From NCBI GenBank assembly GCA_030536655.1, contig JAUNPN010000001.1, forward strand, positions 20,559 through 84,558: DNA of 64,000 nucleotides, written 5' to 3'. This DNA is from a bacterium (GTDB taxonomy: Bacteria > Bacillota > Clostridia > UBA1381). The translations under genes were made by a program, and so were the position numbers. The number at the start of each line of letters is the position of its first letter. Positions within the stretch are counted from its first letter, which is position 1. Of this stretch, positions 1,332 to 25,647 are shown piece after piece. The notes beneath the pieces are model-generated. The model searched no databases. It had not been told where the DNA came from and worked only from the letters and a program-made list of their open reading frames with translations.

Positions 1332-1519
1332 TTAAAGAGCTGATTCATAAGGTGTTTCAAGAACGGGTTTCATACTGTCCCTCCAGATAAATACTTTAAC
1401 CGACAAGTTTTCCTTATTCTCCGGCATGGTAAAGCTGTCCTGTACGGTAAACAATGACTCCTCATCAAATTCAGGCTCATTAAATGTCTTGACGGACTCA
1501 AGTGCTCCGCCATTGTACA
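1332..1519 (-). pseudogene. 3' remnant (61 codons) of the ICE-disrupted giant glycoside hydrolase gene; partner is 47987-54014
   Basis: YNGGALESVKTFNEPEF...KVFIWRDSMKPVLETPYESAL matches the end of the C-terminal module of the 1874-aa and 2301-aa enzymes. The 23 codons upstream in ORF 1332-1586 are ICE-end sequence. There is no credible own start. Confidence 0.85.
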
Positions 1520-1573: not shown

Positions 1574-3277
1574 TTATCCCGCACACGCCGCATAGTGAAT
1601 GTCTACACCCTGCCTTGTGTGTACTGACACATTATTTTCAGGTAATTTGTCAATATTCGGAATTTCAATACTTCCTATACAGTTATAATGAATTTTTAAG
1701 CGTTGTATTCGTTTACCGTCTATTTCCTCTGCCTGATATACCTCTATTTTCTCTATAAGCTCATTAAGCATTTTGGGCGTCAGCTTTCTTGCTCTTGTAT
1801 ATTTCCTAACAGATGTCATAAACATATCGGTTGAAACAGATTTGTTTGTATCTTTGTCGAGTTCGTCCTGTAACTCTTTTATACGGATATTGAGTTCTTT
1901 TTGTTCTGCGTCATATTTAACAGATAATTTTGAAAATCGTTCATCAGATATTTTCCCTGAAACATTATCCTCATAAATCTTTTCAAAAAGCACATCAAGC
2001 TCTTTATCGCGGGAAGTCAAAGAATTTAATTCTTTCTGCTTCATACGTCGTTCCTGTTCCGCCGTCTGTATGGAATGTCCCATAACTATTTGAGCAAATT
2101 CGGTTTCATATTGTGTCGCAAACTTTGTCAGACGTCTAATCTCGCCAAGTACAACCCGTTCTAAGAAGTCAACGCGGATATAATGCGTTGACGAACAAAT
2201 TTTCCTGTCGCCTTTGTTATATCCCGAACAGTTGAAATATTGTATGTCGTGATTTTTTTGATTGAAGTGATACCATAGATTGCTACCGCAATCAGCGCAT
2301 ACAAGCAACCCAGAAAACATATTCTTTTCGCCGTCTGCCTTTTTACGTTTTCTCGTCTTGCCGCGTTTACTCTGTATCTTTTCCCAAACAGCCCGCTCAA
2401 TAATAGGCTCGTGAACATCTTTAAAAACTGCTTGATTTTCTTTATCGTTAGCAAATCTTTTTTTGTTCTTATATGACTTTGAATAGGTTTTGAAATTGAT
2501 AACATCACCGCAATACTCTTGTAAATCAAGAATATATATAACCGTTGAACTATTCCATAAATACGGGTATTCCGGATTTTTCTTTCCCGGTCTGTTAATA
2601 CCCTTGCTCGCCCAATAGTTTATCGGTGTCATTATTTTATCCTTTTCCAATGTTTCAGCAATTTGCTCTGTGCCTATACCGTTCATAGTCATATTGAATA
2701 TACGGCGTACAACCGCTGCTGCTTCTTCGTCAATAATCCAAAACTTAGGATTATCAGGATTTCTCATATAGCCATACGGCGGAGCTCCCAACGGCTCACC
2801 CGAATTTCCTTTTATCTTATAACTGATACGGCGCTTTTTTGAAATATCACGCGCATACCATTCATTAAAAAGATTTTTTATCGGCGCAAGCTCATTTTCG
2901 CCCTCTTGCGTGTCTATATTATCTGAAACAGCAACAAGTCGTATATCGTGGTCTGGAAAAAATTCTTCCGTCAATTTGCCAACCTCAATATAATTACGTC
3001 CTAATCTTGAAAGGTCTTTTACAAATACGGCTGAAATTTTATTGTTTTCTATTGCTTCAATCATAGCTTTATATCCGGGACGTTCCATTGTAACGCCCGA
3101 AATACCGTCGTCGCAGAATATCAATAAATTTGTATAGCCTTTTTCCTTTGCGATTTTAGTTAGCAGCTTTTTTTGATTGACAATGCTGTAACTGTCGCCC
3201 TCTAAGTTATCATCACGGCTTAAACGAACATATAAAGCCGCTGTTATTTCTTTTTGTTTGTTATTTGACCGTTTCAT
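1574..3277 (-). CDS. Large serine recombinase (ICE integrase/excisionase)
   Basis: 567 aa. N-terminal resolvase catalytic domain (AALYVRLSRDD...VNQKKLL...DDGISG), then a recombinase domain and a Cys-rich zinc-ribbon region (CADCGSNLWY...CSGY). Its position at the element terminus is typical. Confidence 0.92.
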   Translation of the reverse strand: MKRSNNKQKEITAALYVRLSRDDNLEGDSYSIVNQKKLLTKIAKEKGYTNLLIFCDDGISGVTMERPGYKAMIEAIENNKISAVFVKDLSRLGRNYIEVGKLTEEFFPDHDIRLVAVSDNIDTQEGENELAPIKNLFNEWYARDISKKRRISYKIKGNSGEPLGAPPYGYMRNPDNPKFWIIDEEAAAVVRRIFNMTMNGIGTEQIAETLEKDKIMTPINYWASKGINRPGKKNPEYPYLWNSSTVIYILDLQEYCGDVINFKTYSKSYKNKKRFANDKENQAVFKDVHEPIIERAVWEKIQSKRGKTRKRKKADGEKNMFSGLLVCADCGSNLWYHFNQKNHDIQYFNCSGYNKGDRKICSSTHYIRVDFLERVVLGEIRRLTKFATQYETEFAQIVMGHSIQTAEQERRMKQKELNSLTSRDKELDVLFEKIYEDNVSGKISDERFSKLSVKYDAEQKELNIRIKELQDELDKDTNKSVSTDMFMTSVRKYTRARKLTPKMLNELIEKIEVYQAEEIDGKRIQRLKIHYNCIGSIEIPNIDKLPENNVSVHTRQGVDIHYAACAG

Positions 3278-3364: not shown

Positions 3365-3541
3365 TTATTCGCTTGATGTCATAAGCCGTAATAAAACAGA
3401 GCCTAATGTTTCGGAAGATTTCTCTTTAAATATCGGTTGTACAACAAATGAGGTTCCATTGACTTGATATGTAATTTCAGCGTCAAGTGATTTATCATTA
3501 CAATTATTTTTGTGTTTTGGATTTTGAGTAGTGTAATTCAT
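3365..3541 (-). CDS. TnpW-like small transposon protein (58 aa, below ORF-track cutoff)
   Basis: Hand translation: MNYTTQNPKHKNNCNDKSLDAEITYQVNGTSFVVQPIFKEKSSETLGSVLLRLMTSSE. GGAGG lies 10 nt upstream of the ATG. The pattern (T-Y-x-V...F...SETL...L-x-RL) matches the TnpW family found beside serine recombinases in clostridial transposons. Confidence 0.6.
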   Translation of the reverse strand: MNYTTQNPKHKNNCNDKSLDAEITYQVNGTSFVVQPIFKEKSSETLGSVLLRLMTSSE

Positions 3542-4033
3542 AAAAAATTAACCTCCATAAAAATTTATGTTAAATCCACCACCTAATAAACCCACCTACC
3601 GAGAGTAATAACTCAATCAAAAATCATCTGACTGTCGGCGGCTGCCGACATCACGACAAGTTAAATCCAGCTCATTCCTATGACCTGCCGCCCAATGCGG
3701 TGAAACGTTCAAGGCGGGGGTATTACAATATATCGGTATTTATATCAGCATATACAAGCCGTTATACGCCTATCAGAAATGTTTGTCGCTCGGATATACA
3801 GGCTGTTTTAATCTTGCAGCGTACTTTTATTGTACGGTAGAAGCTATATATCGTCTTGGCGCATTACTGAAAAATACGGATTTAAAGTAAAGTATCAGAT
3901 GATTTATATTCAGTTGTCAAAGAACAAAGGGGATTTTAGCCCATATAAGCGCATTAAGGGAATAATGCGTTTATATCGGATAAAACCCGTATAAGGGGCG
4001 CGGAAAGGACTGCACGCCCCAACGGTCAATCAA

Positions 4034-4273
4034 TTAGTAGCGAATTACAAAATTATTCACAATTCCCAAAACTAACTTTGCTTCAAGTCTTGATATAACA
4101 TCTTCATCAACATAATAATGTTTTTTGCCCCACTCGTCCTCATATACCCTTGTAGCCAAAGTCTTTATGTAGCTATGAAAATGTGATAGAATAAACTGTA
4201 AAGCGTATGATTTACCCTTGACAGCGTCCTCAATAATAGACAATGGAATGTCCTCAATTTTCTTCTTGCTCAT
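4034..4273 (-). CDS. Tn916 Orf8-like helix-turn-helix protein (HTH_16 type)
   Basis: 79 aa. IPLSIIEDAVKGKSYALQFILSHFHSYIKTLATR...VDEDVISRLEAKLVLGIV matches the conjugative-transposon HTH family that pairs with the Orf7-like sigma factor. Its start overlaps the end of the upstream gene. Confidence 0.75.
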   Translation of the reverse strand: MSKKKIEDIPLSIIEDAVKGKSYALQFILSHFHSYIKTLATRVYEDEWGKKHYYVDEDVISRLEAKLVLGIVNNFVIRY

Positions 4274-4694
4274 AGTGAAAATCCTCCTTTTGCAGCAGAT
4301 TACATAATAGTTTTAATGCCTGCTTACGCCTTTTAAAAACTGTTTGTTGAATTAGATTTAATCGTCTGCCGATTTCTATATCGCTCATTCCAATAAAGTA
4401 CGATAGAATAATAACATCTTGTTTATTCTTTGGTAGCTGACGAATAGCTTTCGCTAATCGGTTATCCGTAATTATAATGGTCTTACCATTTATATAAAAT
4501 GCGTTTTCGCCCTTAAAGTAATTATCATATATACCTATATCGCCTATATCATCAAGCGGAAAAATAGTAATGTCTTTTTTATATTTCTGTCCTCTGTTTT
4601 GCTCTCGGTAAACATCACATATTTCGTTTTTTAGTAAACGAGTGCAAAATTTACAGAATTGATTTAAAATACGTTTATCATTTTCAGCGTTCAT
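4254..4694 (-). CDS. Sigma-70 family RNA polymerase sigma factor (Tn916 Orf7-like)
   Basis: 146 aa. Region-4 HTH: LPKNKQDVIILSYFIGMSDIEIGRRLNLIQQTVFKRRKQALKLL. AGGAGG RBS. Confidence 0.8.
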   Translation of the reverse strand: MNAENDKRILNQFCKFCTRLLKNEICDVYREQNRGQKYKKDITIFPLDDIGDIGIYDNYFKGENAFYINGKTIIITDNRLAKAIRQLPKNKQDVIILSYFIGMSDIEIGRRLNLIQQTVFKRRKQALKLLCNLLQKEDFHYEQEEN

Positions 4695-4730: not shown

Positions 4731-4781
4731 TTATTTACCCCTCTATAAATGTTTAACGGAAAAAATTTTTGAAAAACAACC
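4731..4781 (-). promoter_or_regulatory. Conserved ~50-nt upstream element, copy A (upstream of sigma operon)
   Basis: GGTTGTTTTTCAAAAATTTTTTCCGTTAAACATTTATAGAGGGGTAAATAA (minus orientation) is near-identical to 16299-16349 on the + strand. It ends ~40 nt before the sigma start codon. Confidence 0.55.
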
Positions 4782-5242
4782 ATTTTTTGGTAAATGTTAA
4801 AATTTTTTTTATTTTGTTTCATATCTGATAACCTCCAATTTTGAATTTGCGTTTTTCAAAATCGGGATTATGGATAGCGAATAGGGGGCTTGTCCCATTC
4901 GTGTTCTATAAAAAAACATATATGTGTATGATAAGAGTAAATAACAGAAATTTTGCAGACGAGATAAAAAAATTTTTGCCTATTCTTAATATATCCCGTA
5001 GAAACACCAAAAAGCGTAATACTATGTGTCAAAAAACCACACAATATTACGCTTTCTCTGTTAGGTACTGTTAAACTGTCATTTTTCGCATTGATAGGTG
5101 CAAAAGTGGAATATGGTTTATATATTTTTTTGATAAATAAAGTTTTCTATCAGACCTGTAAATAGGTTTATTGTTTTTTATTCCACTCATATCTCCTGTA
5201 CATTAGTAAATTATTTGTGAGTATTTACCATTATCAAACTAA

Positions 5243-6469
5243 TCAATTATATAAATGACTCGGCAGACCGTCTACCATAATAGGCGACAATTCGGCTTGT
5301 ATCAGCGGACGCGCGTATGACAAAAATTCAGGCGACACATATGTACCATTATCTGTTATCCATTCCAAAGGCACTTTTTTCTCAATGTTTGCAATTTTGT
5401 TAATATCAAACGGTTGCGTGGTACACTGATACGGATTGTTTGTAACGCGGTTAAATATAATCATTTTGCCTGTTTCACCTCTGAACGACGCTTCAACCGC
5501 GTGTCCGCCTGCAACAAAGGCTTCTGTTATATCTACTCTTGAAACCATATGCGAGCCGCAGCGTTGGAGAATATTCAAATCTATTGCGCGCGATTTGCAG
5601 CCAAATTCTTGTGTTATTGTATTTGACAGGAATTGTGCCGTGCCGCCTAATGCGACGTGTCCGAAAGAGTCTTTAAATTGTGATTGACTTGATATAAGTT
5701 CGCAGACATATCTACCGTCTTTTAACTTTATACCCTCAGAAACCGCAACAACTATTGACTTTTTATTTTTTCTTAAATTTTCTATGCTTGAAAGGAAACT
5801 GTCAACATCAAATACTTTTTCAGGCAGATATATCAAATCAGGACCGATACAATCCTCGCCCTTGCTAAGTGCAGCCGAAGCTGTAAGCCAGCCTGCGTTT
5901 CTTCCCATAATCTCTACAATATGTATATTTTGATTTCCATACACATTTGCGTCCTTGATTATTTCTTTCATAACCGTTGCGATAAATTTTGCTGCGCTTC
6001 CGTAACCGGGAGTATGGTCTGTTTCGGCAAGGTCATTATCAATAGTTTTTGGTACACCCATAAATCTTATGCTGCTGTTTATCTTTTCTCCGTAATGAGA
6101 TAGTTTTTTAATGGTATCCATTGAGTCATTTCCGCCGATGTAGAAAAAGTGTTCAATTTCAAGGTCATTAAGCATTTTAAAGATTTTTATGTATATTTCT
6201 TCATTTTCCTCTATTTCAGGTAGTTTGTATCGGCAAGAGCCGAGATATGCCGATGGAGTTCTTTTAAGTAATTCAATATGCAAGTCTGTCTGAATATGCT
6301 CCGACAAATCTACATATCGTCCTTCAAGAAATCCCGCAATTCCATTCTGCATACCGAATACTTTATTTGCGCCCCTGTCGCGTGCGGTTTTAAATACTCC
6401 TGCAAGACTTGAATTGATAACGGCGGTTGGTCCGCCTGACTGACCTACAATAACATTTCCGTGTTTCAT
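5243..6469 (-). CDS. 6-phosphofructokinase, probably pyrophosphate-dependent type
   Basis: 408 aa. GQSGGPTAVINSSLAGV, IGGNDSMDT and VPKTIDNDL motifs. The Asp and Lys at the positions of E. coli PfkA Gly104 and Gly124 are the PPi-PFK signature. Confidence 0.85.
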   Translation of the reverse strand: MKHGNVIVGQSGGPTAVINSSLAGVFKTARDRGANKVFGMQNGIAGFLEGRYVDLSEHIQTDLHIELLKRTPSAYLGSCRYKLPEIEENEEIYIKIFKMLNDLEIEHFFYIGGNDSMDTIKKLSHYGEKINSSIRFMGVPKTIDNDLAETDHTPGYGSAAKFIATVMKEIIKDANVYGNQNIHIVEIMGRNAGWLTASAALSKGEDCIGPDLIYLPEKVFDVDSFLSSIENLRKNKKSIVVAVSEGIKLKDGRYVCELISSQSQFKDSFGHVALGGTAQFLSNTITQEFGCKSRAIDLNILQRCGSHMVSRVDITEAFVAGGHAVEASFRGETGKMIIFNRVTNNPYQCTTQPFDINKIANIEKKVPLEWITDNGTYVSPEFLSYARPLIQAELSPIMVDGLPSHLYN

Positions 6470-6511
6470 TTTTTTGTTTCCTTTCTTACAATAGATGTTA
6501 TTACTTTAATT

Positions 6512-8875
6512 TTAAAAATATTTATTCAATAAAATCAATTTATCACCTTTTATAAAATCAATTTCAGCCGTTCTACCGTTTTGTGAGATAATATTTTTGC
6601 TGTTACAAATCATATTATTCGCGCAAAATGGAGGCAGTTCGATTATTATATTAAATGTTTTGCTTGCTGTTAATTCTGCTTTAAACTCATTTTTAGGTAT
6701 ATTCCATTCCATATCAATAGTGCCGCCCTCAAATCTCCAGCCTGTAATCTTTCCGTGCTGCATATCATCACTTAGAGCCGGAAGAAGTTTTATCAATTTC
6801 TTTGAGGAATACAAAATCATTTCCTGCACTGCGTTTACATATCCCATACTTGCGTCAAGCTGAATAGGAGCGGCAGAGTCCATTTCCAAAGACAAATCCA
6901 TTCGCCGCCAATCATTATGCAGCGTGAAAAAATTAGTTTGCATACAGCTTCTTACGAGATTATTTAAGCAGTCCATCGCGTCATTACCGCGATTAAATCT
7001 TGCATATATTGACGCCATATGCGCCTGCGACCAACCTGTTTGTGCGCTAATATCTCTCAAATCAACCGCCTTTTCAAATGCTGATACCATATCGTCGTTT
7101 GTTGTTATTTCATCACCCGGAAAAACAGGATATATATGCGACAAATGCCTGTGATAATACCTGTCCTCAAAATCATCGTCCTGCCATTCCTTAACGGCTC
7201 CGTCTTTATTTACGCTATATTCGGGAATGGAATTTACGATATTTTCCCATATTTTAATTTTGTTGCCGTATATATTATGCTCGACGCATAACTCGATTAA
7301 ATTTGTAAACAATTCCTTGATTATCGCCAAATCCATAGTGGAATTAACAGCGCTTGTCATAGGGTGCGCCATATCAACATTGTCTTTTGGAATAAAATTC
7401 AAAGGAGAATTTTCGGGCGAAACACTCGGATATATTTTTATATACCCGCTTTCATCAAACGCAATAAAATCCTCATAAAACTCTGCCGCCGCTTTCATAA
7501 ATGGCAGAACAACACTATGCAGATATTCAGTATCTCCTGTATAGGAATAATATTTATAATAATGCTGCGCCAGCCAACCTGCTGCGCCCGTCCAATTCAT
7601 AATTACAGGCACAAGCTGACACGGTAGCGGCATATTCGGTGTTGTTCCTGCCGGAATAAATATACCTTTACAGCCGTAGAGTTTTTTAGCGCACTCCTTA
7701 AAGATGTCAAGCCTGCTTATATAATACTCTAATAATGCCTTGTTAAGCTCCTCCAGATTGCCGATATTAGCGTGCCAATACATCATCTGTATATTTTCAT
7801 TTGCCATATTATGACTCCATACAGCTTTATAATCTCCGCACCATAATCCGTACATAGAAAACGGAAATCCGTCCTTAGAACTTCCCGATATAAATAAATA
7901 CCGCCCGTACCGCCATAGTTTTTCGATAAGCTCATTCGGAGATTTGCCGCTATACGCATTTAACATAAGTTCCTCATTCGATAAATCATTGTTCTCAAAC
8001 AAGTTAAGCTCCGCACTATGATACAAGGCACTGTGAAGCGGAATATGACGGTTTAGATAATATTCATAGCTGTTATTCTCAAATTTCAACTTGTCTTTAT
8101 CAGGACAGCCATTTACAAATACCTTTATTTTAATAAGAATATCAGACGCGCAATTTACATTGATACGGCTTTCACTGTTTTTAATATCACCGTCAGCACT
8201 TTCGATTTTTACCACCGCGCCGTATGGTTTTTTATTGGTATTAAGCGATTTATAAATGATAATATTACTGTCTATTTCAGTACGGCTATGTTCCTTTACA
8301 TATTGATATGTTTTGTCGGAGCTGTCGGTAGCTGTTGGAACATCTAATGAAAATACAGCGTCCAAGAAAGGCTTATCTGCCTGTATTCTAAGAAGTATCA
8401 TATCGTCTTTTCGTGATACGAATAAATCTTTTTTTACCCACACGTCTTTTTCACGAAATTGTGAGCTTACTTCGCCTGTTTCCATATTGACAGCGCGAAG
8501 ATAATCAGAAAATCCTGTAAAGCCTGTAAAAGACATATTAAGTTCTGCAAGTGGCAGCGGATAACCGCGCTCATTGTTATATCCGCTTTCTGTAAGCGCA
8601 TTTGTTAAAATCCAATTTGCCGTATTGAAATCTCTGTTATCCATTGCTTGACGTGTCTTTGTCAGACTTCCGCTTATATCAGGGAGAGGATTACACTCCG
8701 TACCCGTCCATAAAGCACTGTGATTTATAAGCACACTTTCGCGTTTTGTGCCGCCGTACACATTTGCGCCTATTTTTCCGTTACCGCTCACCAAACCCTC
8801 GCGCCACAAGGCTTTATGCCACGACGAGGGATATTTCATTGTAATTACATTTATGTTTTTATTTATCAGTTTCAT
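6512..8875 (-). CDS. GH95-family glycoside hydrolase, no signal peptide (cytoplasmic)
   Basis: 787 aa. N-terminal WREGLVSGNGKIGANVYGG...INHSALWTG and catalytic-domain GLWCGDYKAVWSHNMANENIQMMYWHANIGNLEE match GH95 signatures. Confidence 0.8.
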   Translation of the reverse strand: MKLINKNINVITMKYPSSWHKALWREGLVSGNGKIGANVYGGTKRESVLINHSALWTGTECNPLPDISGSLTKTRQAMDNRDFNTANWILTNALTESGYNNERGYPLPLAELNMSFTGFTGFSDYLRAVNMETGEVSSQFREKDVWVKKDLFVSRKDDMILLRIQADKPFLDAVFSLDVPTATDSSDKTYQYVKEHSRTEIDSNIIIYKSLNTNKKPYGAVVKIESADGDIKNSESRINVNCASDILIKIKVFVNGCPDKDKLKFENNSYEYYLNRHIPLHSALYHSAELNLFENNDLSNEELMLNAYSGKSPNELIEKLWRYGRYLFISGSSKDGFPFSMYGLWCGDYKAVWSHNMANENIQMMYWHANIGNLEELNKALLEYYISRLDIFKECAKKLYGCKGIFIPAGTTPNMPLPCQLVPVIMNWTGAAGWLAQHYYKYYSYTGDTEYLHSVVLPFMKAAAEFYEDFIAFDESGYIKIYPSVSPENSPLNFIPKDNVDMAHPMTSAVNSTMDLAIIKELFTNLIELCVEHNIYGNKIKIWENIVNSIPEYSVNKDGAVKEWQDDDFEDRYYHRHLSHIYPVFPGDEITTNDDMVSAFEKAVDLRDISAQTGWSQAHMASIYARFNRGNDAMDCLNNLVRSCMQTNFFTLHNDWRRMDLSLEMDSAAPIQLDASMGYVNAVQEMILYSSKKLIKLLPALSDDMQHGKITGWRFEGGTIDMEWNIPKNEFKAELTASKTFNIIIELPPFCANNMICNSKNIISQNGRTAEIDFIKGDKLILLNKYF

Positions 8876-8903
8876 ATTATCCTCCTTGAAGTCTTATACT
8901 ATA

Positions 8904-8935
8904 AATGCCAATCCGAAATATTCCGAATTGGCATT
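8904..8935 (-). terminator. Hairpin between the 1874-aa gene and GH95 (terminator or attenuator)
   Basis: 12-bp stem (aatgccaattcg / cggattggcatt, one mismatch) with an 8-nt loop. Only a weak T tract follows on the minus strand. Confidence 0.4.
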
Positions 8936-8955
8936 TATAAAATATAGGGAGAGAG

Positions 8956-11900
8956 TTAACGCAAAATCTTTGCTTCTGTAAGCGGCTTCATATTCTCTAA
9001 ACTGTTCCATAAGAACGCTTTAATATAATCTCCGCTTTCAATCGCTGAATTTGAATATGTAATGCTATATTCGTTGGCACTATTAGCCGTTACTGTATGC
9101 TTTTCGGTTTTCAATTCCTTTAAAGTTCCGTTTCCATCATACAATGCAATCATCATATTTACGGGTATATCCGTTTCACCGTTATTTTTTATAGCAGAAG
9201 TTGCCGTAACTGTTTCTCCTGCGGTTAATTCTGTTTTGTCAAATTCTATTTCACCAGCCGAGAACGGTTCTTCAAATTCTCCCTTTACAACTGTTATTCC
9301 TAACAGACCTGCTAAGACCTCGCTTGAAAGACATTCAAAGTCAACGCTTTCTATTTGATTAACCTTGCCAAAGTCAAGAGCGAGAATATTTGAATGTGCT
9401 TTGGCGCCAAGCATTTGCACATATCCCGTTTCCGCATACGGTTTTGCTTGCTGATAATTGAGCCAATCGTCAATATTATCAGGGTTTGTAAGCGGAAGTA
9501 TTTCTTTTGTTCCGTCTTTCATATTAACCGTAATTCTCGCGTTCTCAATTCTGCTCTGCATATTATTTGTAGATACGCTTAACATAAAGTAAATCTTTGA
9601 ACCGTCTGTATTAACGGGAATATTCATCTTGTCGGGGAACTGATTATATAGCGATACAAAAGCCGCATTGTTTCCCTCTGCTGATGAAATTTCAAAAGGA
9701 ACGCCTATATCTGTTAAATACTTACCTGATGTAAGATTTAAGCTACTCGGAACACCGTCTGCACCTCTGCCCGGCTCCCACCAAGCGCGTCCGTTTGGAA
9801 GAACCGTTCTTTCCGCGTCAGACGACCAATAAAATTTCTCAAGCCTGTAATGCTCGTTGCCCTCATAAGTGAGGTCATATTCATTTTGGTGCAGCGTTCT
9901 CAAATCCTGATTTACAACGCCATCAAGTGATATTGTCTGATACTGCTCCGCAGTATTTGTTACATTATCCTTTAAATCCCAAGCGGTAAGCTCGCCGTAA
10001 ATTGTTTTGTTTACATCTCCGCTTAAAACTGCTGTAACCCTATTGTTGCCGGGTGTTAAATCGGGTTCGCTTTCAATCGGTACAAGAATTTCATTACTTG
10101 CGCCCTTTGCCGCTATCGTTATATTTTCTTCTGTAACTTTGCCGCTTACAGTTGACAATGTAGCATTGAGTTTAAGCTGTTTTTCAGTGTTATTTGTGAG
10201 CTTCACTTTTATTCCCGCATTTGCGCCTGTAACAATTTCCATATCAGTTAATTCAACTGCATCCTTAACTTCAAGGTCAACAGGCAATACAGCAGTCATA
10301 TCGTTTTTCTCTACCGTAACAAAGAATGTATGGTGTCCTGATTTTTCGCCTAACGCTACTGTTATCGTATCTGTGCCGATACCATTCGTATTTGTAATTA
10401 AGCTCTGCGGGTCTGAAATAGCTGTGATTATACCGTTTGATTTAACAGTGTAATCAGAGTTTTTACCGCCGACAGGTTTCGCTCCAATCTTTGCAAGCTC
10501 ATCATTTGCATATGTTACCTCAATAACTGCACTGCTATTGACAGGAGTTTTTACATTTACAAAATTATCAACCGTATAATTCGTTACCTCCGAGCCGTTT
10601 ACCTTAACGCTTGTAATTTTTGAGCTTCTTGTAGGAATGTGCATTTCATAGCTCAAATTTTCCTTTGATGTTACACTAAATTTATCTGTGTTATTTTCGT
10701 ATTTATAGTCATAGCTTACAGCGTCCATTTTTATAGACGCATATTTCCAATCTGCGGGGAAACCGGGTTTTATATCAGCTTTTCCGTCCGGCACATTTAC
10801 TTTTATTCCGAATATACCCTCTGCCGCTGTTCTCGCATATTGCGATGTACAGTCTGCAAAGTCAATATGACCGTTATTTGATAAATCGGCTTTCACAATA
10901 TGCTGGACAGTTCCCTGACCTGCCGAACTGCCTTTCATAAGAGGAACAAGACAAGCTCTAAACTGTTTCATTCCCATTTCGCGCTGACCGTTTTCAAAAT
11001 ATGCAAGGGCATTGTTCATAACCTCCTCAACATACAAGCCGTCACTTGAATAATATTCGGGAAGTCTGTTTGAAGAATACTTAAAATCTATATTATCCCA
11101 AATTTTATCTAAGTTTGCAACACTCGGAACAGCATAATCGGTAAATCTCATCATTTGATATACCTGTTCATCAGTCGCAATCCCCATATCAACAGCAGTA
11201 TATATTGACGATAAATCGGGCGCGGCGTTAAGTCTGCCGTAACCAAAGCGTTCCTTTACTTCTCCGAATACACCTGTGTCAGCGTCCCAAAGCTGCTCGT
11301 TCATTTCCTTTTTGATTAAATCAGCCTTTGTCTGATATGCTGCTGCGTCATCTGTCTTACCGAGTTTCGACGCAATTTTTGCCATTGTATTATATGCTCT
11401 CCAAGTGTATGCGGTTGCTATTGAGCCTGCGCCGCCGTTGTTCCACTTATTATCGGTATTCCAAGCGTCAAGCCAATTTTCATATAAATTTGTTCCGGGA
11501 ACCTGCATATAATCGTCCATAAATTTAAGGTGTCCGGCGATAAATTCATATCCGCCCTCATTTGCAAAGAACGCGTCATCTCCCGTCCAATCCCAATACT
11601 GCATTATAATATCTACCATTACAAGGCTCATATTATAGCGTCCGTCGTGAGATGGATATGCCCATATTCTTCCTGTATCTTTCTCCTGTCTTGCAATATA
11701 ATTTTGAATATTAGTTTTTATTCTGTCGCTCCAGCCTGCATTTACAAAGCAATATCCGCCGCGCCAGCCGCCCTGTCCGTTATGCCAGCCGATTGCGCCG
11801 TGAGTTATAACAGGATTATCCCATATGTTATCCATTGCCATAATCTGAGCGCGCATAGCTGAATTGATGTACGGGTCGGGAGTATCAATTTTTATAGTTT

Positions 11901-14580
11901 CCGCAACACCTTTGAAATAGCTTATACTATCGTTAAATATTTCTCTTGCGTTTGTCTGATACTCGTTAAAATATTTATTTTCTGACGGACTATCTGTTGT
12001 AATCATCATATACACCGTATTTTCGGTATTACCGTCAGTCGTGCCTACTACCATTGGCTGATTTGCCGCTGTTGAGGTTAATAAAGCGTCCACTCCTGAA
12101 CTGTACATTGACGCGTCCTTTGCGGCATAATTCATTTTTACATTTGATGTGCCGCTTATTGTAGCATATGAGCCTGTGATACTGAATGAATTATCAGTAA
12201 ATGTCGGAACAGTTGAATTTGTATCGGACGGACTAAATTCAAGTGCGGAAGAATTACCGCCTGTCGGCTGCTTGCTGTCTATTTTATTACCGCCTGCCGC
12301 TGCAACTACCAGCTTATCCTTTACACTGTCGGGAAGCTCTGCTTTTACAAGCATAGCGTCGATTTTGTCCGAGCGTGTATATGTCAGCTTTATTTCACCC
12401 TCAAAGGAACTGTCTTTTATAACATATTCTTCGTACCCGTTTACATATCTTGCAGTTATATTGCTCATTTCATCAAGCCATTTTCCGTCCTTTATGCCAA
12501 GAAACATATGAGCAAAACGGAAAAAGCTTGTGCCTGTACCCGCATTTGACAATACCAATTTCGGTCTGTCGCCGAGATAATAGATATATCTGAACGAGGT
12601 TTCGCCATTATCGTTTGTATGCGCCGCATATATAGGGCGCGTATAATTCTTGTTTCCGTTGTCAATCTCAAAACCGCCGTCAACAGGCTTGTATGTAAAC
12701 GGATTTTTTGTAACTACAACCTTTAAGCTGCCTTTTATATCAGCAGTTGAAGCGGTAACAGTTATAGTCTGTTCTGTTGCTGTGCTGTCTGCTGTTACTG
12801 CCGCACTTGCGCTGTCAAAAGTTATACCGTTACTGTCATATGTTTCCATACTCCAAGAAAAGTCAGTATTCTTAATTTCAACGCCCTTTTGGTCGTATGC
12901 TTTTGCGGTATATGTAAAGCTCTTTGTTCCGCTTTTCGGTATTTCTATTGACATATCACCGTCTACGGCGATTTCTGATAATACAGGCTTATATACTCTT
13001 ACTGTCTTGCTTGCGGTTATATCGCCTGATGTTGCCTTAATTATAACGTCGCTGTCGCTGTTTACTGCGGCTGTCAGCACCCCGTTTTCAAAGGTTATAC
13101 CGTCTGTCGTATTTTCAGCGTTCCAGCCGCTTAATTCCTCTGACGGCATTTCCACTCCGTATTGGTCAAATATTTTTACCGTATAGGTTTCGCTTACCTG
13201 CGACGCTGTTTGCAGCATATCCGCTCCGATTATTTCTATTTTAGAAGCAGTCATTTTATATGTTTCTATTTCTTCTGAAATAGCATAAATACCCGGATTA
13301 TCTTCTAAGGCAGCCTTTACCTTAAAAGAGCTTGCCGTTGCTGATGAAGTTGAAGAAATAACGCCTGTGTTTTCGTCTATGATTATTCCGCTATCGTTTA
13401 ATGCTGTTTCATCAGTATTTAAAAGCGACCATTTAAGCGGTATTCCATACGCTTCGCTGCCTGCCTTGTCATAGCACTGAGCATAAAATTCTGTTGTTAC
13501 AGAACCGCTGTTCGGTATCGGCAATCTGCTTGCAGGATTTATAAGACTTACAGACGCCGCTGAGCCGGCCTGCGCTATCGTGATTTTTGCGCTGTCATAC
13601 TCCGAACCGTCATAGCTTAAAAGTCTTACGTTATATTCGCCTGCGTCTGCTTCGGAGCTTACAGTTAAAACGCCTGTCGCAGGATTTAATGTTATGCCTG
13701 TCGGTAAATTCTCCTGTAAACTTTCTGTATCATCTGAATTATAAAGCTCAAACTTTACTAATTCTTTTGACAGCGGTTCATAGCTTGATAAATCAACGCC
13801 GTTAAACGAAGCCGCTGCGACAAGATAGTTTACTGTTTTTGTTGTTCCCTCGGCGGGAATAGAAACCTTGCTTATATCGTCTGTTACTCCGATAGTAACC
13901 TCCGTCGGCGCAGGTTTATATACTTTCATATTTCTGACGTCAACCGCGCCGGAGCGTATATCGCTTTCGCCGTTTACTTTGTTTGTAACATTAAATTGTG
14001 AAAATATAGACTGAGTTAAGTTTCTAATTACTTTTTCAGACTTGGTCGCCTGTACTTTCTCGTCTGTATCTGCCGCCTTAGTGTAAGCAACCATACTTGT
14101 TGTTCCGTTGGCAAGAAATTTTATATTGTACCACTTGTTTGCTTCTGCGCCCTGATACATTGTTTCATAACTGCTCGGATTACCTATTTTTGTCTTAATT
14201 TTTTCACCGTCGAATATTACCGTAGGTCCGAGCTTTGAGCCGCCGTACAACTCTACAACACCCGAATTTCCATCCGCAAATCTCACGTCAAATTCTGCAA
14301 CATATATGCTGCCACCTGCAAGAGTGCTGTCAACCTTTCGTGTAACCTTTTGTTCTGTGTCTACGGCTGTATAGCGCATATATGGAATTTCCTCGTCGGT
14401 TAAGATTTCCATATTTTCTGTCTTGCCCGTCCACTTGTTATTTTCCGATGTAAAATCTTCGTTCAGATACACCTGCAATTCTTCTGCACTTACATTCAAT
14501 GCAGCAGTTGGAATAAACGCACATATCATCTGCAACGATAATACAGCGGATAAAATACGTTTTAATGCTTTTGCTTTCAT
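8956..14580 (-). CDS. 1874-aa secreted multidomain glycoside hydrolase-like protein (LamG-like N-module, Ig-like repeats, (alpha/alpha)6-barrel-like core, C-terminal Ig-like module)
   Basis: Signal peptide MKAKALKRILSAVLSLQMICAFIPTAALNVSAEE. Four or more Big_2-like repeats. The core (GAIGWHNGQGGWRGGYCFVNAGW...YENWLDAWNTDNKWNNGGAGSIATAYTWRAY) looks like a six-hairpin glycosidase, but I cannot assign the exact family. The C-terminal module is shared with two other enzymes in the window. Confidence 0.7.
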   Translation of the reverse strand: MKAKALKRILSAVLSLQMICAFIPTAALNVSAEELQVYLNEDFTSENNKWTGKTENMEILTDEEIPYMRYTAVDTEQKVTRKVDSTLAGGSIYVAEFDVRFADGNSGVVELYGGSKLGPTVIFDGEKIKTKIGNPSSYETMYQGAEANKWYNIKFLANGTTSMVAYTKAADTDEKVQATKSEKVIRNLTQSIFSQFNVTNKVNGESDIRSGAVDVRNMKVYKPAPTEVTIGVTDDISKVSIPAEGTTKTVNYLVAAASFNGVDLSSYEPLSKELVKFELYNSDDTESLQENLPTGITLNPATGVLTVSSEADAGEYNVRLLSYDGSEYDSAKITIAQAGSAASVSLINPASRLPIPNSGSVTTEFYAQCYDKAGSEAYGIPLKWSLLNTDETALNDSGIIIDENTGVISSTSSATASSFKVKAALEDNPGIYAISEEIETYKMTASKIEIIGADMLQTASQVSETYTVKIFDQYGVEMPSEELSGWNAENTTDGITFENGVLTAAVNSDSDVIIKATSGDITASKTVRVYKPVLSEIAVDGDMSIEIPKSGTKSFTYTAKAYDQKGVEIKNTDFSWSMETYDSNGITFDSASAAVTADSTATEQTITVTASTADIKGSLKVVVTKNPFTYKPVDGGFEIDNGNKNYTRPIYAAHTNDNGETSFRYIYYLGDRPKLVLSNAGTGTSFFRFAHMFLGIKDGKWLDEMSNITARYVNGYEEYVIKDSSFEGEIKLTYTRSDKIDAMLVKAELPDSVKDKLVVAAAGGNKIDSKQPTGGNSSALEFSPSDTNSTVPTFTDNSFSITGSYATISGTSNVKMNYAAKDASMYSSGVDALLTSTAANQPMVVGTTDGNTENTVYMMITTDSPSENKYFNEYQTNAREIFNDSISYFKGVAETIKIDTPDPYINSAMRAQIMAMDNIWDNPVITHGAIGWHNGQGGWRGGYCFVNAGWSDRIKTNIQNYIARQEKDTGRIWAYPSHDGRYNMSLVMVDIIMQYWDWTGDDAFFANEGGYEFIAGHLKFMDDYMQVPGTNLYENWLDAWNTDNKWNNGGAGSIATAYTWRAYNTMAKIASKLGKTDDAAAYQTKADLIKKEMNEQLWDADTGVFGEVKERFGYGRLNAAPDLSSIYTAVDMGIATDEQVYQMMRFTDYAVPSVANLDKIWDNIDFKYSSNRLPEYYSSDGLYVEEVMNNALAYFENGQREMGMKQFRACLVPLMKGSSAGQGTVQHIVKADLSNNGHIDFADCTSQYARTAAEGIFGIKVNVPDGKADIKPGFPADWKYASIKMDAVSYDYKYENNTDKFSVTSKENLSYEMHIPTRSSKITSVKVNGSEVTNYTVDNFVNVKTPVNSSAVIEVTYANDELAKIGAKPVGGKNSDYTVKSNGIITAISDPQSLITNTNGIGTDTITVALGEKSGHHTFFVTVEKNDMTAVLPVDLEVKDAVELTDMEIVTGANAGIKVKLTNNTEKQLKLNATLSTVSGKVTEENITIAAKGASNEILVPIESEPDLTPGNNRVTAVLSGDVNKTIYGELTAWDLKDNVTNTAEQYQTISLDGVVNQDLRTLHQNEYDLTYEGNEHYRLEKFYWSSDAERTVLPNGRAWWEPGRGADGVPSSLNLTSGKYLTDIGVPFEISSAEGNNAAFVSLYNQFPDKMNIPVNTDGSKIYFMLSVSTNNMQSRIENARITVNMKDGTKEILPLTNPDNIDDWLNYQQAKPYAETGYVQMLGAKAHSNILALDFGKVNQIESVDFECLSSEVLAGLLGITVVKGEFEEPFSAGEIEFDKTELTAGETVTATSAIKNNGETDIPVNMMIALYDGNGTLKELKTEKHTVTANSANEYSITYSNSAIESGDYIKAFLWNSLENMKPLTEAKILR

Positions 14581-14698
14581 AGGTCTGCCTCCTTAAATTA
14601 TTTCTTAAATTTATTGTTAATTTAATTATACAATATTCATTTTGCTTTGTATATGTCAAAATACTGCATATTTTATGATAAATTCACGCATTTTTATA

Positions 14699-14727
14699 TT
14701 GCGTTGATTTCCGCAATATGATATACT
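14699..14727 (+). promoter_or_regulatory. Sigma-A-type promoter of the AraC gene
   Basis: TTGCGT - 17 nt - TATACT with TGn extended -10. A 7-bp inverted repeat TATTGCG/CGCAATA overlaps the -35 and spacer. It lies 20 nt upstream of the start codon region. Confidence 0.5.
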
Positions 14728-14746
14728 AAAAGCAGGGGGTGAGCGT

Positions 14747-15589
14747 ATGAATAAAACTATCCGATATTCTTCGTTTGAAAATAAATTTGAGGTGATATAC
14801 AGGAATGAAATTCCGACTGTTCTAATGCCGCCGCATACGCATAATGCGATTGAATTATACATAAGTCTGACGCCGCTATCAAATATACTGCTCGGCGATA
14901 CTGTAATGCCGCTTAAAGAAAATTCGCTGCTTATAATACCGTCATATTGTATTCATCAGTTTACACAACTTCCTGACTGTGAGTATGAGCGATATATTAT
15001 AACTATCAGTACGGAATGGCTTGAAAATTTTATAGCGGACAATAAAAGATACAGCTATTTTACTGATACAAAAAAACCTATCGTTATTACTCTTGATGAT
15101 AAACAAAAAGCATTATTGCTTAATCGTATGCAGGATTTTATCGCCTGTAAAAACAACGATACCTTTTCTGAAATATCAATATTTTTTGATATTCTGAAAA
15201 TTATAGACGGATTGATTTATACTCACGCTGAAAATGACGAGGTGGAAAAGAGAGTTACAGGAACGCAGCAAACGGTAAATCAGATTATTAAGTACATAAA
15301 TGCTCACCTTACAGAGAATATTCATCTTACGGATATTGCAGAAAAGTTTTATTTAACACCTAATCATATATCAAGAATATTTAAAAAGCATACGAATACG
15401 CAAATAAGCAATTATATTATTTTGCAGAGAATGACAAAGGCAAAACAACTTTTTCGTGAGGGATTTACAGTTGCGGAAGCGCAGATAGCAACAGGATATT
15501 CAAGCTATGAACATTTTTTCCGTACTTTCAAAAAGAATGTCGGTATGACACCAAAGGAATATATAAATGCTTATTATAATCGCGAATAA
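14747..15589 (+). CDS. AraC family transcriptional regulator (cupin sensor plus HTH)
   Basis: 280 aa. N-terminal cupin-like HTHNAIELY, and a C-terminal double HTH (IAEKFYLTPNHISRIFKKHT...TGYSSYEHFFRTFKKNVGMTPKEY). It is divergent from the hydrolase operon. Confidence 0.9.
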   Translation: MNKTIRYSSFENKFEVIYRNEIPTVLMPPHTHNAIELYISLTPLSNILLGDTVMPLKENSLLIIPSYCIHQFTQLPDCEYERYIITISTEWLENFIADNKRYSYFTDTKKPIVITLDDKQKALLLNRMQDFIACKNNDTFSEISIFFDILKIIDGLIYTHAENDEVEKRVTGTQQTVNQIIKYINAHLTENIHLTDIAEKFYLTPNHISRIFKKHTNTQISNYIILQRMTKAKQLFREGFTVAEAQIATGYSSYEHFFRTFKKNVGMTPKEYINAYYNRE

Positions 15590-15605
15590 AAATTTTTTGA
15601 ATTAT

Positions 15606-15640
15606 TTAAAAACAACCACCCGCACATCATGGGTGGTTGT
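15606..15640. terminator. Hairpin terminator between the convergent AraC and esterase genes
   Basis: acaaccaccc - 9 nt - gggtggttgt. A T5 run follows on the minus strand and an A run precedes on the + strand. Confidence 0.6.
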
Positions 15641-15653
15641 TCCGCTCTATATC

Positions 15654-16212
15654 TTATTTCATTAAAACCCATTCCGCCATTGCTTTACCGACTGACTTAC
15701 CAACCTCGTTATATGCGTGTTGATTATAATGGTATTGGTCTATCATATCAGCAATATATCCCTCAAAGCTGCCAGCTAAAATAAAGTTATCATTATTCTC
15801 GCACAATGCAGTTTGCGCATTTCGTATTACAGCATAGCGTTCATCATAAGCCTTAGCCGAAAGACTGCCGCTGCCGTTTGGATAATCTACATAGTTATAG
15901 TGTCCTGTCTGCACCAAAAAACAAACTTCTGCGCCGTGCTGTTTAAATGTGTCAAATAAATCAATCGTATTTTGTGTATATACCGACGCTGAAATATCAG
16001 TGTCGCCGTCAGTTTCAAATTGTGCCGACTTTATCCTCATTAAATCCAAATGGCTCGGTAATAGGTACAAGCATTTCAGAATTACTTACCGCTTTATATT
16101 CAAAACCTGCTTTTTCATCACACAATGTTGCATTTGCTACATTACCTCGTCCTGACATATTAGACTGTCCAGCGAAAACTATAACATCAACAGTTTTATT
16201 AACTTTAATCAT
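15654..16212 (-). pseudogene. SASA/DUF303-type (sialate O-acetylesterase-like) SGNH esterase, frameshifted
   Basis: ORF 16015-16212 carries VIVFAGQSNMSGRG. The rest of the domain continues in another frame (15654-16070). The frames overlap around 16015-16070, so this is one indel or a sequencing error. Confidence 0.7.
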
Positions 16213-16298: not shown

Positions 16299-16349
16299 GG
16301 TTGTTATTTCAAATTTTTTTTCGTTTAACATATATAGAGGGTAAAATAG
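16299..16349 (+). promoter_or_regulatory. Conserved ~50-nt upstream element, copy B (upstream of oriT and the mob operon)
   Basis: GGTTGTTATTTCAAATTTTTTTTTCGTTTAACATATATAGAGGGTAAAATAG. See copy A at 4731-4781. Confidence 0.55.
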
Positions 16350-21051: not shown

Positions 21052-21426
21052 TTAAGGCTTAAAATTTCTACTCTCATATCTCTTTTTTCGGATATAATCA
21101 GCCTTTTGTTTATTCCACACGATTTTTCGGCATTTATCACAATATTTTGAATTGCGTCCTGTCGGCGTATATTCATTACCGCAAACTGTACATTTTTTCC
21201 TGTTCTTCGGCTTCATCAGCCGTATGTATAAATCGTTATCATTCGGCAATACCGCTGTTCTGAACCATTTACAATTAAGGGAATAAGAAATACTTTGAGG
21301 GCAGATGCAAGGCTCGCCGTCGTCAAGTAAAATACAATTCCCGTCAAAATAGTTGCAGCATTGATTTTTTATAAGCGCCTTACACCGACGCGCCTGTTCA
21401 GGCGTCATTCGTATAATATCACTCAT
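21052..21426 (-). CDS. Cysteine-rich VLP-family ICE protein
   Basis: 124 aa. NQCCNYFDGNCILLDDGEPCICPQSISYSLNCKWF plus a C-terminal CTVCG...CDKC. Confidence 0.7.
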   Translation of the reverse strand: MSDIIRMTPEQARRCKALIKNQCCNYFDGNCILLDDGEPCICPQSISYSLNCKWFRTAVLPNDNDLYIRLMKPKNRKKCTVCGNEYTPTGRNSKYCDKCRKIVWNKQKADYIRKKRYESRNFKP

Positions 21427-22856
21427 AGCGTTTCCTCACGCGGCTTTTTCTGCGGCTGCTGTTCGGATTTTGGGCGTTCATTGGAAATAGCCCTTAACTG
21501 TTCCTTAATTGACGGCTTTTTATCAGTATTATTGATAATTCCGTTAGCTTGATTAAATTTCTCGTCTGAATATCCCTGTTCATATTCAACAGATGTTACT
21601 CGATATTCAGACGGAATATATATGGTATTACCCTCATATACCTTTTTAAAATCTGTACAACCGGGTTTTAGATATACACCGTTTATTAGCTTTCCGCCCT
21701 CGCTGCGTTCCGTTTCCATAGCATAGGCTTCTAAATCGAAGTATTCGCATAATTCACCCAAAATAATGTCTTTGTCTAAAAGCATATTGCGCCCCAAGTC
21801 GTCATAATCAGAAATTTCGTGCCAAACATCATAATACTCGGTATTATAAGTAAGATTTATTGCGTCTATTACATTTTTACATTTGCCCGCTTCAAGTGCT
21901 ATTTGAAAGACAGCCATTTCTACATCTTCCAATGCCGATATACGCATAGCAAGATAATTTAGCGCGTCAACACTCTCGTATTGACTAAAACACTTTTTCA
22001 AATCATCATTGCCGCAAGCGTAATCATCAAAAAAGTATGTGTCGGGACTTGCATTTTCAGACAAGCCTATTTCCGCAAAGGTTCGTTTGACGGTTTCCGC
22101 GTCAGACGGAAAGTATAGCCAAGCGCCGCTTGTTTCCTTGTTTCCGTTGTCATATTCAAAGCTATTGACGATAAACGCCTTAAATATATAGTCGCTCATA
22201 TTATTCACTCCTTTTTCGGTTATTTGTTTTTTAGACGGTTTAATTTTGTATTCTGGCGGTATATTTTCAACAACACCGTTATATTTGATTTTGAAATCAG
22301 TAGATACTCTTTCCAAATAAACATCACTTAAAAAATAACCGCCATTACGCTCGGCGTAATCTTTTCCGTATGCTGCATAATCAATATAATCCGCCAAATC
22401 ACCAATAACCCCAACGTCAAATCCCTGTTGTTCTGCAATATACGAGCCAACATTTTCCCAACTGTACATATTATAAACAAGATTATAACAATCTATATTA
22501 TGTGCAAGATTTATAATGCTCGCTATATTTGCAGTATGTTCCTTTGTTTCAATAACTGCGTCAAATGTATTGCGTTCTGTTTTATTCATTCCACCTAATA
22601 GGACAGAAAGGTAATTTAATTCATCAATAGCCGCTTTTTTGGGGAATACCGTTTCATTATCACCACTTTTATATATATAATCATCAAAGAAATATGTATC
22701 AGGACTTGCATTTTCGGATAGTCCTATTTTGGCAAGGGTATTTTTGACAGCTTCCGCGTCTGTCGGGAAATACAGCCAAGCACCGCTTGTTTCCTTGTTT
22801 CCATTGTCATATTCGGAACAGTTGACGATAAAGGCTTTAAATATATAATCGCTCAT
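21423..22856 (-). CDS. ardA: Tandem double ArdA-like antirestriction protein (two fused modules)
   Basis: Start moved to MSDYIFKAF (22856). MSDYIFKAFIVN..EYDNGNKETSGAWLYFP.DAE...SPDTYFFDDY occurs twice (modules 22200-22856 and 21423-22199). The fold-level pattern matches the single ArdA at 25648-26433. Confidence 0.75.
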   Translation of the reverse strand: MSDYIFKAFIVNCSEYDNGNKETSGAWLYFPTDAEAVKNTLAKIGLSENASPDTYFFDDYIYKSGDNETVFPKKAAIDELNYLSVLLGGMNKTERNTFDAVIETKEHTANIASIINLAHNIDCYNLVYNMYSWENVGSYIAEQQGFDVGVIGDLADYIDYAAYGKDYAERNGGYFLSDVYLERVSTDFKIKYNGVVENIPPEYKIKPSKKQITEKGVNNMSDYIFKAFIVNSFEYDNGNKETSGAWLYFPSDAETVKRTFAEIGLSENASPDTYFFDDYACGNDDLKKCFSQYESVDALNYLAMRISALEDVEMAVFQIALEAGKCKNVIDAINLTYNTEYYDVWHEISDYDDLGRNMLLDKDIILGELCEYFDLEAYAMETERSEGGKLINGVYLKPGCTDFKKVYEGNTIYIPSEYRVTSVEYEQGYSDEKFNQANGIINNTDKKPSIKEQLRAISNERPKSEQQPQKKPREETL

Positions 22857-22860
22857 ATTA

Positions 22861-23807: not shown

Positions 23808-23810
23808 AGC

Positions 23811-25589: not shown

Positions 25590-25647
25590 TTCCTATCCAC
25601 TCCGTCAAATTCCAGATTAAACTGCGCATATCTGTTGTATAGGCATA

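Follow-up and report, generated by a model that had tools for sequence, protein, structure and literature searches.

A cassette of predicted glycan-degrading enzymes and a phosphofructokinase gene as probable accessory cargo of a Tn1549/CTn5-like conjugative element, with remnants in other gut Clostridia

Modular integrative and conjugative elements, here called ICEs, of Tn1549/CTn2-CTn4-CTn5-like kind have been described in Clostridia, Clostridioides difficile among them (Brouwer et al., PMC3158075, PMC3383454). Their accessory modules hold ABC transporters, resistance genes, toxin-antitoxin systems or restriction-modification systems (PMC3383454). Conjugative elements also spread glycan-degrading capacity among gut bacteria, as with the CTnDOT-like ICEs of gut Bacteroidota and the polysaccharide utilisation loci (PULs), with SusC/SusD, that they bear. 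In a survey of gut mobile genetic elements (MGEs), GH95 was among the glycosidases recorded, and glycosidase cargo was enriched only on Bacteroidetes MGEs (PMC6907783; see also PMC12255022). Here we describe a 64,000-nucleotide stretch of a clostridial contig (JAUNPN010000001.1, positions 20,559 to 84,558, assembly GCA_030536655.1; hereafter, the window), most of which is, by open reading frame (ORF) listing and family searches, one conjugative element of ~46.47 kb. It shares with the Tn1549/CTn5-like elements a modular build, a MOBP-type relaxase with MobC, VirD4/VirB4-type conjugation genes, DUF3801, PrgI, NlpC/P60, topoisomerase III, ArdA, an Orf7/Orf8-like sigma/HTH pair, a terminal recombination module and an accessory module that varies. 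This likeness to the named Tn1549/CTn elements is one of gene content. Unlike them, the window element integrates by a DUF4368 serine recombinase and carries an ~11.5-kb putative glycan-degradation cassette with a glycolytic enzyme; unlike the Bacteroidota PULs, this cassette has no transporter and rides on a Firmicutes-type ICE. We consider it probable that the block is true accessory cargo in a variable slot of an ~46.5-kb Tn1549/CTn5-like ICE, that it combines an AraC-controlled enzyme pair with a phosphofructokinase (PFK), and that it has left remnants elsewhere.

An initial annotation of the window had named five genes in the block at positions 5243-16212, and all five are present there. 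The cassette and the edges of its slot are laid out as follows.

4731..4781, minus strand: promoter-like element of ~50 nt, left slot edge (upstream of the sigma operon)
5212..6530, minus strand: 1.3-kb PFK add-on segment (absent in mouse-gut run X9 and locus L008)
5243..6469, minus strand: pyrophosphate (PPi)-dependent PFK gene (NCBIfam NF010675)
6512..8875, minus strand: GH95 alpha-L-fucosidase/alpha-L-galactosidase-type enzyme (Pfam; no signal peptide)
8956..14580, minus strand: 1874-aa multidomain enzyme with signal peptide (Pfam; AlphaFold (AF2) model; Foldseek)
14581..14746, no strand: control region separating the enzyme operon from the divergent araC (gene positions)
14747..15589, plus strand: AraC-family regulator, cupin and HTH_18, complete (Pfam; beside the big enzyme in all relatives)
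15654..16212, minus strand: SASA/SGNH-type carbohydrate esterase gene, broken (GQSNMSG motif)
16299..16349, plus strand: second copy of the promoter-like element, right slot edge (upstream of mobC)

Exact-protein look-up of the cargo GH95 led to five metagenome contigs, L001-L005, in which the genes are ordered as in the window. L001, L003, L004 and L005 are 99.8-100% identical to the window and L002 is 96.8% identical; the cargo is colinear in all five assemblies, and backbone genes adjoin it in four (L001-L004). Where the left junction is covered, in L001 and L002, it lies at the CCA end of a tRNA gene and not in the host hydrolase gene that is interrupted in the window. Since near-identical ICE and cargo thus stand together at another site, the cargo travels with the element, which supports the earlier proposal that the block is co-transferred. 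The gene for the 1874-aa enzyme is found in >20 public runs (an isolate and gut metagenomes, those of rat and mouse included), and the host flank in essentially none. As to the proposed ICE-mediated spread among gut or rumen Clostridia, carriers turned up in rat, mouse and other gut metagenomes and in one run labelled sediment; rumen carriers were not found.

The block was also said to lie inside the att boundaries, between divergent backbone operons, and to have no mobility function; the mapped ends and the family searches agree. It is flanked by the operon of the sigma, HTH, TnpW-like and recombinase genes on one side and the MobC/relaxase operon on the other, which diverge, and the slot measures 11.7 kb from the sigma gene to mobC. 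The surrounding element and its insertion site comprise the following.

1518..1519, CA (TG on the other strand): attL crossover dinucleotide, left ICE end (divergence of L001/L002; starts of contigs X2/X4)
1574..3277, minus strand: large serine recombinase (Pfam: Resolvase, Recombinase, Zn_ribbon_recom, DUF4368)
3365..4694, minus strand: backbone regulatory operon (Pfam: TnpW-like 3365-3541, HTH_16 4034-4273, sigma-70 region-4 4254-4694)
16412-16813, plus strand: MobC/NikA-like accessory protein (family searches)
16774-18117, plus strand: MOBP-type relaxase (PF03432 Relaxase, E 7.6e-39)
21052..47652, minus strand: rest of the ICE backbone (family searches)
47985..47986, CA: attR crossover dinucleotide, right ICE end (contigs X2 and X4; host ORF restored)
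47987..54032, minus strand: host gene for a secreted giant glycosidase-like protein, split by the ICE (last 62 codons at 1332-1519, minus strand)

The backbone from 21 to 47.6 kb encodes a Cys-rich VLP protein, two ArdA proteins, ArdC/M78, topoisomerase III, CD1107-like, DUF4315, NlpC/P60 and LPD34 proteins, followed by a C5 methylase, a VirB4-like ATPase, PrgI, a TrbL/VirB6-like protein, VirD4/TraG, DUF3801, an SLH surface protein and DUF6017. A coupling protein, a VirB4-type ATPase and mating-channel genes are therefore present (T4SS-DNA_transf/TraG-D_C, TraG P-loop/AAA_10, TrbL_2, PrgI, NlpC/P60). The relaxase also matches the TraI/MobA(P) relaxase model, below that model's cut-off. With a relaxase and its accessory protein, mating genes, an integrase whose ends restore the target, and insertions at several chromosomal sites, the element shows the gene set, ends and insertion pattern expected of an ICE. 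About 500 bp at 3541-4034, between the TnpW-like and HTH_16 genes, hold no convincing ORF, and an Rfam search of the window, this gap included, returned no RNA family.

Both ends were placed with contigs of other samples (rat-gut and other metagenomes) aligned to the window; these match from 1517/1518 to 47986-47994, and their flanks differ from sample to sample. On the left, the match of X2 starts at 1518 and that of X4 at 1517, and L001 and L002 cease to match ~59 bp beyond the recombinase stop codon; their flank is the 3' end of the tRNA gene (GGTACGCCCGGAGGGATTCGAACCC, CCA end), and the window has an orphan reading frame there. On the right, the loose end of X2 begins after 47986, and X4 reaches 47994 and then diverges. 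CA (TG on the other strand) is the sole dinucleotide compatible with all junctions, and host flanks joined at CA by script gave one uninterrupted 2077-aa frame. A right end at ~47835 (GGTACGCAAATGG) was considered and rejected because the contigs of other samples match up to 47986-47994. The attB site falls within the conserved C-terminal module of the host gene (between …YAALY and NGGALE…). Judged from the other copies, the DUF4368 serine recombinase normally targets the tRNA CCA end; since those copies use that site, the insertion in the window looks like one at a secondary site. The annotated 2037-aa ORF (47919-54032) is an artefact of the insertion: its final ~24 codons are ICE-derived, and the true 2077-aa gene resumes 46 kb away. 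Exact-protein look-up of this ORF gave 0 matches because it is an ICE/host fusion; the same look-up of the DUF6017 protein also gave 0.

A comparison with related ICEs at the same backbone position, which the initial annotation had put forward as a check, covered 80 loci encoding relatives of the relaxase and found the slot variable, empty or filled with other cargo. It is empty in three relatives (L017, L085 and L088), with a gap of 0.7-1.6 kb between the sigma gene and mobC. In an ICE whose relaxase is 54% identical, the slot is mostly ~2.6 kb and, as read in L041, holds an RlmN/Cfr-like radical-SAM methyltransferase; this ICE occurs in ~50 genomes of many genera, and its backbone genes keep constant locus coordinates across the matches. 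The methyltransferase of L041 scores 277.6 bits against RlmN (cut-off 290) and 199 against Cfr (cut-off 530); as it falls below both curated cut-offs, a role in resistance is not established. In further relatives an ABC-type FtsX-like permease gene or an insertion of IS110 or IS256 occupies the slot. This variation matches the published accessory modules of Tn1549/CTn5-like elements (PMC3383454). The cargo of the window has a G+C content of 33-41%, and the host flanks 45-46%.

Other observations concern the slot and its relatives. Upstream of mobC in L081 (1-9267; an Oscillospiraceae metagenome-assembled genome (MAG), relaxase 52% identical), 10 kb encode a 726-aa AraC-type protein and SLH-anchored beta-helix proteins that resemble pectate lyase or chondroitinase B; the same position may here hold a further glycan-degrading cargo. 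Encoded in the corresponding region of L014 (1140-9162) are an abortive-infection toxin of the AbiGii type and a surface protein of 1319 aa (DUF6273, C-type lectin, Flg_new_2). Hosts of the ICE with the 54% identical relaxase (L018-L065 and others, locus ~7100-9680) include Hungatella, Enterocloster, Merdibacter, Christensenella and Gemmiger, and it is also present in MAGs labelled Bacteroidetes, Prevotella and Bradymonadales. At the edges of the slot in the window, the two ~50-nt promoter-like copies (4731-4781 and 16299-16349) are inverted and ~80% identical by direct alignment; a repeat search with 10-nt seeds missed the pair. We read them as candidate back-to-back promoters of the recombination/regulation and mobC-relaxase operons. 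The exact core motif of the element is not conserved in more distant relatives, and promoter and terminator scans of 3200-16900 gave no excess over the shuffled expectation.

The two enzymes and the regulator form the core of the cassette: AraC, a DUF4450-type enzyme and GH95. In the GH95 protein the catalytic domain PF22124 is complete (1-408/408, E 2.5e-94), and PF14498, the GH65N_2-type N-terminal domain, is matched at E 1e-28. Its relatives in the PDB include 2rdy, 8zbv and 4ufc, with E-values down to 1e-65. The N-terminus, MKLINKNINVITMKYPSSWH, is devoid of a signal peptide. A TTGACA-type promoter-like site lies at 14659-14630 on the minus strand, within the divergent control region, at a score not above chance for that region. 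Upstream of araC, the esterase gene is in two pieces, 16015-16212 (minus strand; 65 aa with FAGQSNMSGRG) and 15654-16070 (minus strand), separated by a single +1 frameshift near 16042 that the window has in common with L001-L003. The fragment in the window scores 24.0 bits against SASA, for which the gathering cut-off is 24.8. In locus L010, a mouse-gut MAG contig, the esterase is intact at 185 aa and scores 30.0 bits, a match that covers only the first ~22 positions of the profile. Mouse-gut run X9 has one base fewer at 16042, which would restore the frame, so that its esterase is presumably intact. In what had been called a decayed SASA esterase, the motif is present and the decay amounts to one frameshift.

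The 1874-aa protein begins with a signal peptide (MKAKALKRILSAVLSLQMICAFIPTAALNVSA) and continues with an N-module, Ig-like repeats, a DUF4450 beta-sandwich with an (alpha/alpha)6 barrel (~residues 640-1330) and a C-terminal module of ~100 aa. Pfam returned DUF4450 and partial six-hairpin matches, covering about one third of the six-hairpin models. Searching the PDB with the single sequence gave 0 matches at E<0.01, and a profile of 28 homologues gave only local matches to (alpha/alpha)6 enzymes (GH94, E 2e-5); by sequence, the protein belongs to none of the characterised glycoside hydrolase (GH) families considered (GH78, GH94, GH63 and others). The AF2 model of residues 630-1340 is of high confidence (pLDDT 89, pTM 0.89), and Foldseek aligned it to GH94, GH63, GH116, GH65 and GH121 enzymes at TM 0.54-0.69 and probability 1.00, with 10-14% identity. 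The predicted fold is accordingly a beta-sandwich with an (alpha/alpha)6 barrel. In this fold and in the weak Pfam and profile matches of the six-hairpin region, the protein resembles GH94, GH63, GH116, GH65, GH121 and GH78 enzymes; it differs from them in being only 10-14% identical and in having a signal peptide. That signal peptide makes a hydrolase likelier than a phosphorylase. Our literature search found no paper mentioning DUF4450 or PF14614.

Replacement of Gly104 and Gly124 of ATP-dependent PFK by Asp and Lys separates the PPi-dependent enzymes from the ATP-dependent ones. The PFK of the cassette has IGGNDS and VPKTIDND, that is, Asp and Lys at the positions of Gly104 and Gly124 in E. 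coli PfkA. It scores 487.6 bits against NF010675 (diphosphate--fructose-6-phosphate 1-phosphotransferase; cut-off 273), and ATP-PFK models score far below their cut-offs. The gene is missing from L008 and from X9; in X9 the joint runs from 5212 to 6530 with 20 other letters in between. Between the window and the allele in L092, the PFK differs by 34 synonymous and 0 non-synonymous changes, and the ratio of non-synonymous to synonymous substitution (dN/dS) is 0.17 for GH95 and 0.07 for AraC. These values indicate that the cargo genes are maintained by selection. The PFK, on its clean 1.3-kb segment, is a later addition to the core module and is under strict purifying selection. The closest PFK checked outside the cassette is 88% identical and has ordinary chromosomal genes around it (Zip, SpoU, DprA, TopA, TrmFO). 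Capture of the gene from a chromosome of the L098 type was considered and ruled out, as the L098-type block contains truncated ICE parts.

Deletion derivatives of ICEs, with their cis-mobilisable forms, are the subject of the CIME/IME concept (cis-mobilisable elements; integrative and mobilisable elements), developed on the ICESt1/ICESt3 family. Loci L008, L010 and L104 are alike in that they keep att ends, have lost conjugation and/or recombination genes and stand in tandem with related elements; they differ in belonging to another ICE family, with a serine and not a tyrosine recombinase. The cargo side of L010 has GH95, the large enzyme, AraC and the intact esterase, and its backbone has kept mobC, the relaxase, a 188-aa ORF, the Cys-rich VLP gene, DUF6017 and the right end; the conjugation region at 21-46.7 kb is absent. 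This makes it an IME-like derivative whose backbone is mosaic, with 80% identity in the relaxase and 93-97% in the cargo. A mini-element of ~11 kb is present in L008, L103 and L105, and in L008 the alignment ends exactly at window positions 47986 and 1518. It contains AraC, a 1876-aa enzyme, a 794-aa GH95, the backbone segment 4828-5211 and a truncated recombinase, and is without the PFK, the sigma gene and the type IV secretion system (T4SS); a gene for a giant SLH protein lies on one side and housekeeping genes on the other. Its GH95 variant, with the source name Hominilimicola fabiformis, is listed in 1885 blocks of the collection, and the 90% cluster of the GH95 partner occurs in ~1,900 assembly blocks. 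The ICE ends, the recombinase and the backbone segment make the mini-element best read as an internal-deletion derivative of a cassette-bearing ICE.

A further type (L092-L101; 385 blocks) matches window positions 5123-15745 at 93.5% identity, PFK included. It is end-less, with only the final 92 bp left of the esterase gene and 120 bp of the backbone, and lies near his genes between a Tn916-type Xis/Int and a tyrosine-integrase fragment. Because truncated ICE parts are inside it, this remnant derives from the element and not the reverse. In human-gut-cohort scaffolds (L098-L101, 1-2669), the remnant directly follows the end of the Tn916-type Xis/Int and is followed by the tyrosine-integrase fragment and an AbiTii gene, which indicates that the site beside the his genes is an integration hot spot. 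Junctions resembling attP, with right-end sequence passing via TG/CA to a left-end-like hairpin, are present in L008 (3440-3530) and L010 (13440-13600). In L104 (13752-22385), another element with a serine recombinase, encoding ParB, RepA_N/DUF6017 and NikA-like proteins, has inserted directly beside the mini-element. The junctions in L008, L010 and L104 suggest tandem accretion at retained att ends. At greater distance, L009 has the core, at 70% protein identity, in another serine-recombinase/MobA_MobL element, followed by a homologue of window 4946-5138 and a recombinase fragment. On L090, an 803-kb scaffold, the core includes two large enzymes that are paralogues, and the 10 kb to each side of it are free of mobility genes; in L091 AraC and the large enzyme stand beside GH43, again with no mobility genes within 10 kb.

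For the working of the cassette we infer the following scheme, in which the enzyme activities, the substrate, the regulation, the benefit of the PFK and actual conjugative transfer are all conditional. The AraC protein would sense a breakdown product and switch on the operon of the 1874-aa enzyme and GH95. Once secreted, the 1874-aa enzyme would cleave a complex glycan outside the cell, and the fragments would be imported via the recipient's transporters, which are invoked because the block encodes none. In the cytoplasm, GH95 would take off alpha-linked L-fucose or L-galactose caps. The SASA-type esterase upstream of araC, an addition to the core, would deacetylate the substrate, though its gene is frameshifted here. 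The PPi-PFK added downstream of GH95 is a copy of a glycolytic housekeeping gene, by which PPi-linked glycolytic capacity would be increased or provided. Being inside the ICE, the cassette would be excised, conjugated and integrated with it, and deletion derivatives have left it in other gut Clostridia as the T4SS-less mobilisable form, the ~11-kb mini-element and the end-less remnants.

Several points weigh against reading the block as working mobile cargo. Many natural copies are immobile remnants (the 1885 and 385 blocks), and inheritance may now be vertical. Transfer between species is inferred from differing insertion contexts, not from host identification. No excised circle or attP junction of the ICE was seen in the data used, which were assembler contigs, where minority forms are hidden. 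The region 4694-16412 holds no transporter or solute-binding protein gene, so the block is neither a Gram-positive PUL nor self-sufficient for glycan use. In addition, the esterase lacks an intact reading frame in the window, and the 1874-aa enzyme has no characterised relative (its structural neighbours are 10-14% identical).

Three other explanations bear on these points. The block might be an independent mobile element, a mini-element or IME nested within the ICE and moving by itself. An ~11-kb unit with ICE-type ends does exist (L008, L103), tandem attP-like junctions lie by the cassette in L008 and L010, and a second serine-recombinase element stands alongside in L104. Yet within the ICE of the window the block encodes neither a recombinase nor a transposase, lacks att-like ends belonging to itself and is edged by backbone promoter-like elements, and the ends of the mini-element are the outer ends of the ICE, with the truncated ICE recombinase and the 4828-5211 segment retained; we therefore think self-movement improbable. 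The same low probability attaches, in our judgement, to a cassette of chromosomal origin that is inherited mostly vertically, the ICE copy being a rare, recent and functionally irrelevant hitch-hiker. Such an origin would fit the core copies that lack mobility genes within 10 kb (L090, L091), the immobile remnants that are the commonest copies in abundant species, and the broken esterase of the ICE copy. What speaks for an old tie to the element family is that L009, at 70% identity, is still flanked by a backbone segment and a recombinase fragment. The remnants are element-derived, since truncated ICE parts remain in them, 92 bp from the 3' end of the esterase gene together with 120 bp of backbone; moreover, the cargo genes are under purifying selection, and many samples have the intact ICE with its cargo, at several sites.

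It is very improbable that metagenome assembly has falsely joined the ICE to the host locus, or the cargo to the ICE. The near absence of the host flank from public runs and the empty exact look-ups of two window proteins could be taken as signs of such an artefact. Against this stand the five independent assemblies with colinear cargo, four of them (L001-L004) with backbone genes beside it, and the flanks themselves: joined at CA, they restore a 2077-aa ORF whose tail belongs to the C-terminal module family, as a chimera would not.

In our assessment the cassette is real mobile cargo on an unusual but unsurprising Tn1549/CTn5-like ICE and represents no novel type of system; how ICEs are understood to work is unchanged by it. 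It provides a well-bounded example of a Firmicutes-type ICE whose slot holds carbohydrate-active enzymes and a glycolytic enzyme in place of resistance genes. Of most interest are the DUF4450 enzyme, which is uncharacterised and very widespread, and the complete succession of forms that leads from ICE to remnant: the cassette can be traced through the full ICE, the T4SS-less mobilisable form, the mini-element with intact ends and the end-less chromosomal remnant. This makes it tractable for two questions: how traits of glycan use spread among gut Clostridia and reach fixation there, and what the DUF4450 enzyme does. More speculatively, and with considerable doubt on our part, DUF4450 with the (alpha/alpha)6 barrel could be the catalytic domain of an uncharacterised GH family, and with GH95 and AraC could make up a minimal, transporter-less mobile foraging unit, spread by one serine-recombinase element family as ICE, IME and mini-element through abundant gut Clostridia, including the genomes with the Hominilimicola fabiformis-named GH95. 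If so, the strictly conserved PPi-PFK passenger would mean that, as mobile cargo, core glycolytic capacity itself comes under selection.

The cargo had further been said to use the same module set as the host locus in which the ICE landed, a claim that holds in part. Shared module vocabulary is common among secreted clostridial enzymes. The argument from modules is weak at the similarities found. Encoded in the host flanks are a GH95-like protein, of which the start alone falls in the window, the protein of 2077 aa that is interrupted, another of 2301 aa (GH141_M, F5/8-C, ricin and SASA domains) and GH2. The N-terminal module of the cargo enzyme, described as LamG-like, has no significant similarity to host modules (blastp, E 0.16). 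For the C-terminal module of ~100 aa, hhalign shows homology with the restored host tail (probability 92%, E 6e-7, 26% identity), at a score of 40.1 where shuffled controls reach <=18.8, and weak homology with a module of the 2301-aa protein (E 0.0015). At ~26% identity the likeness is one of module family, and the cargo has not been copied recently from the host locus. Cargo and host GH95 are 36% identical over the 50 residues that can be compared.

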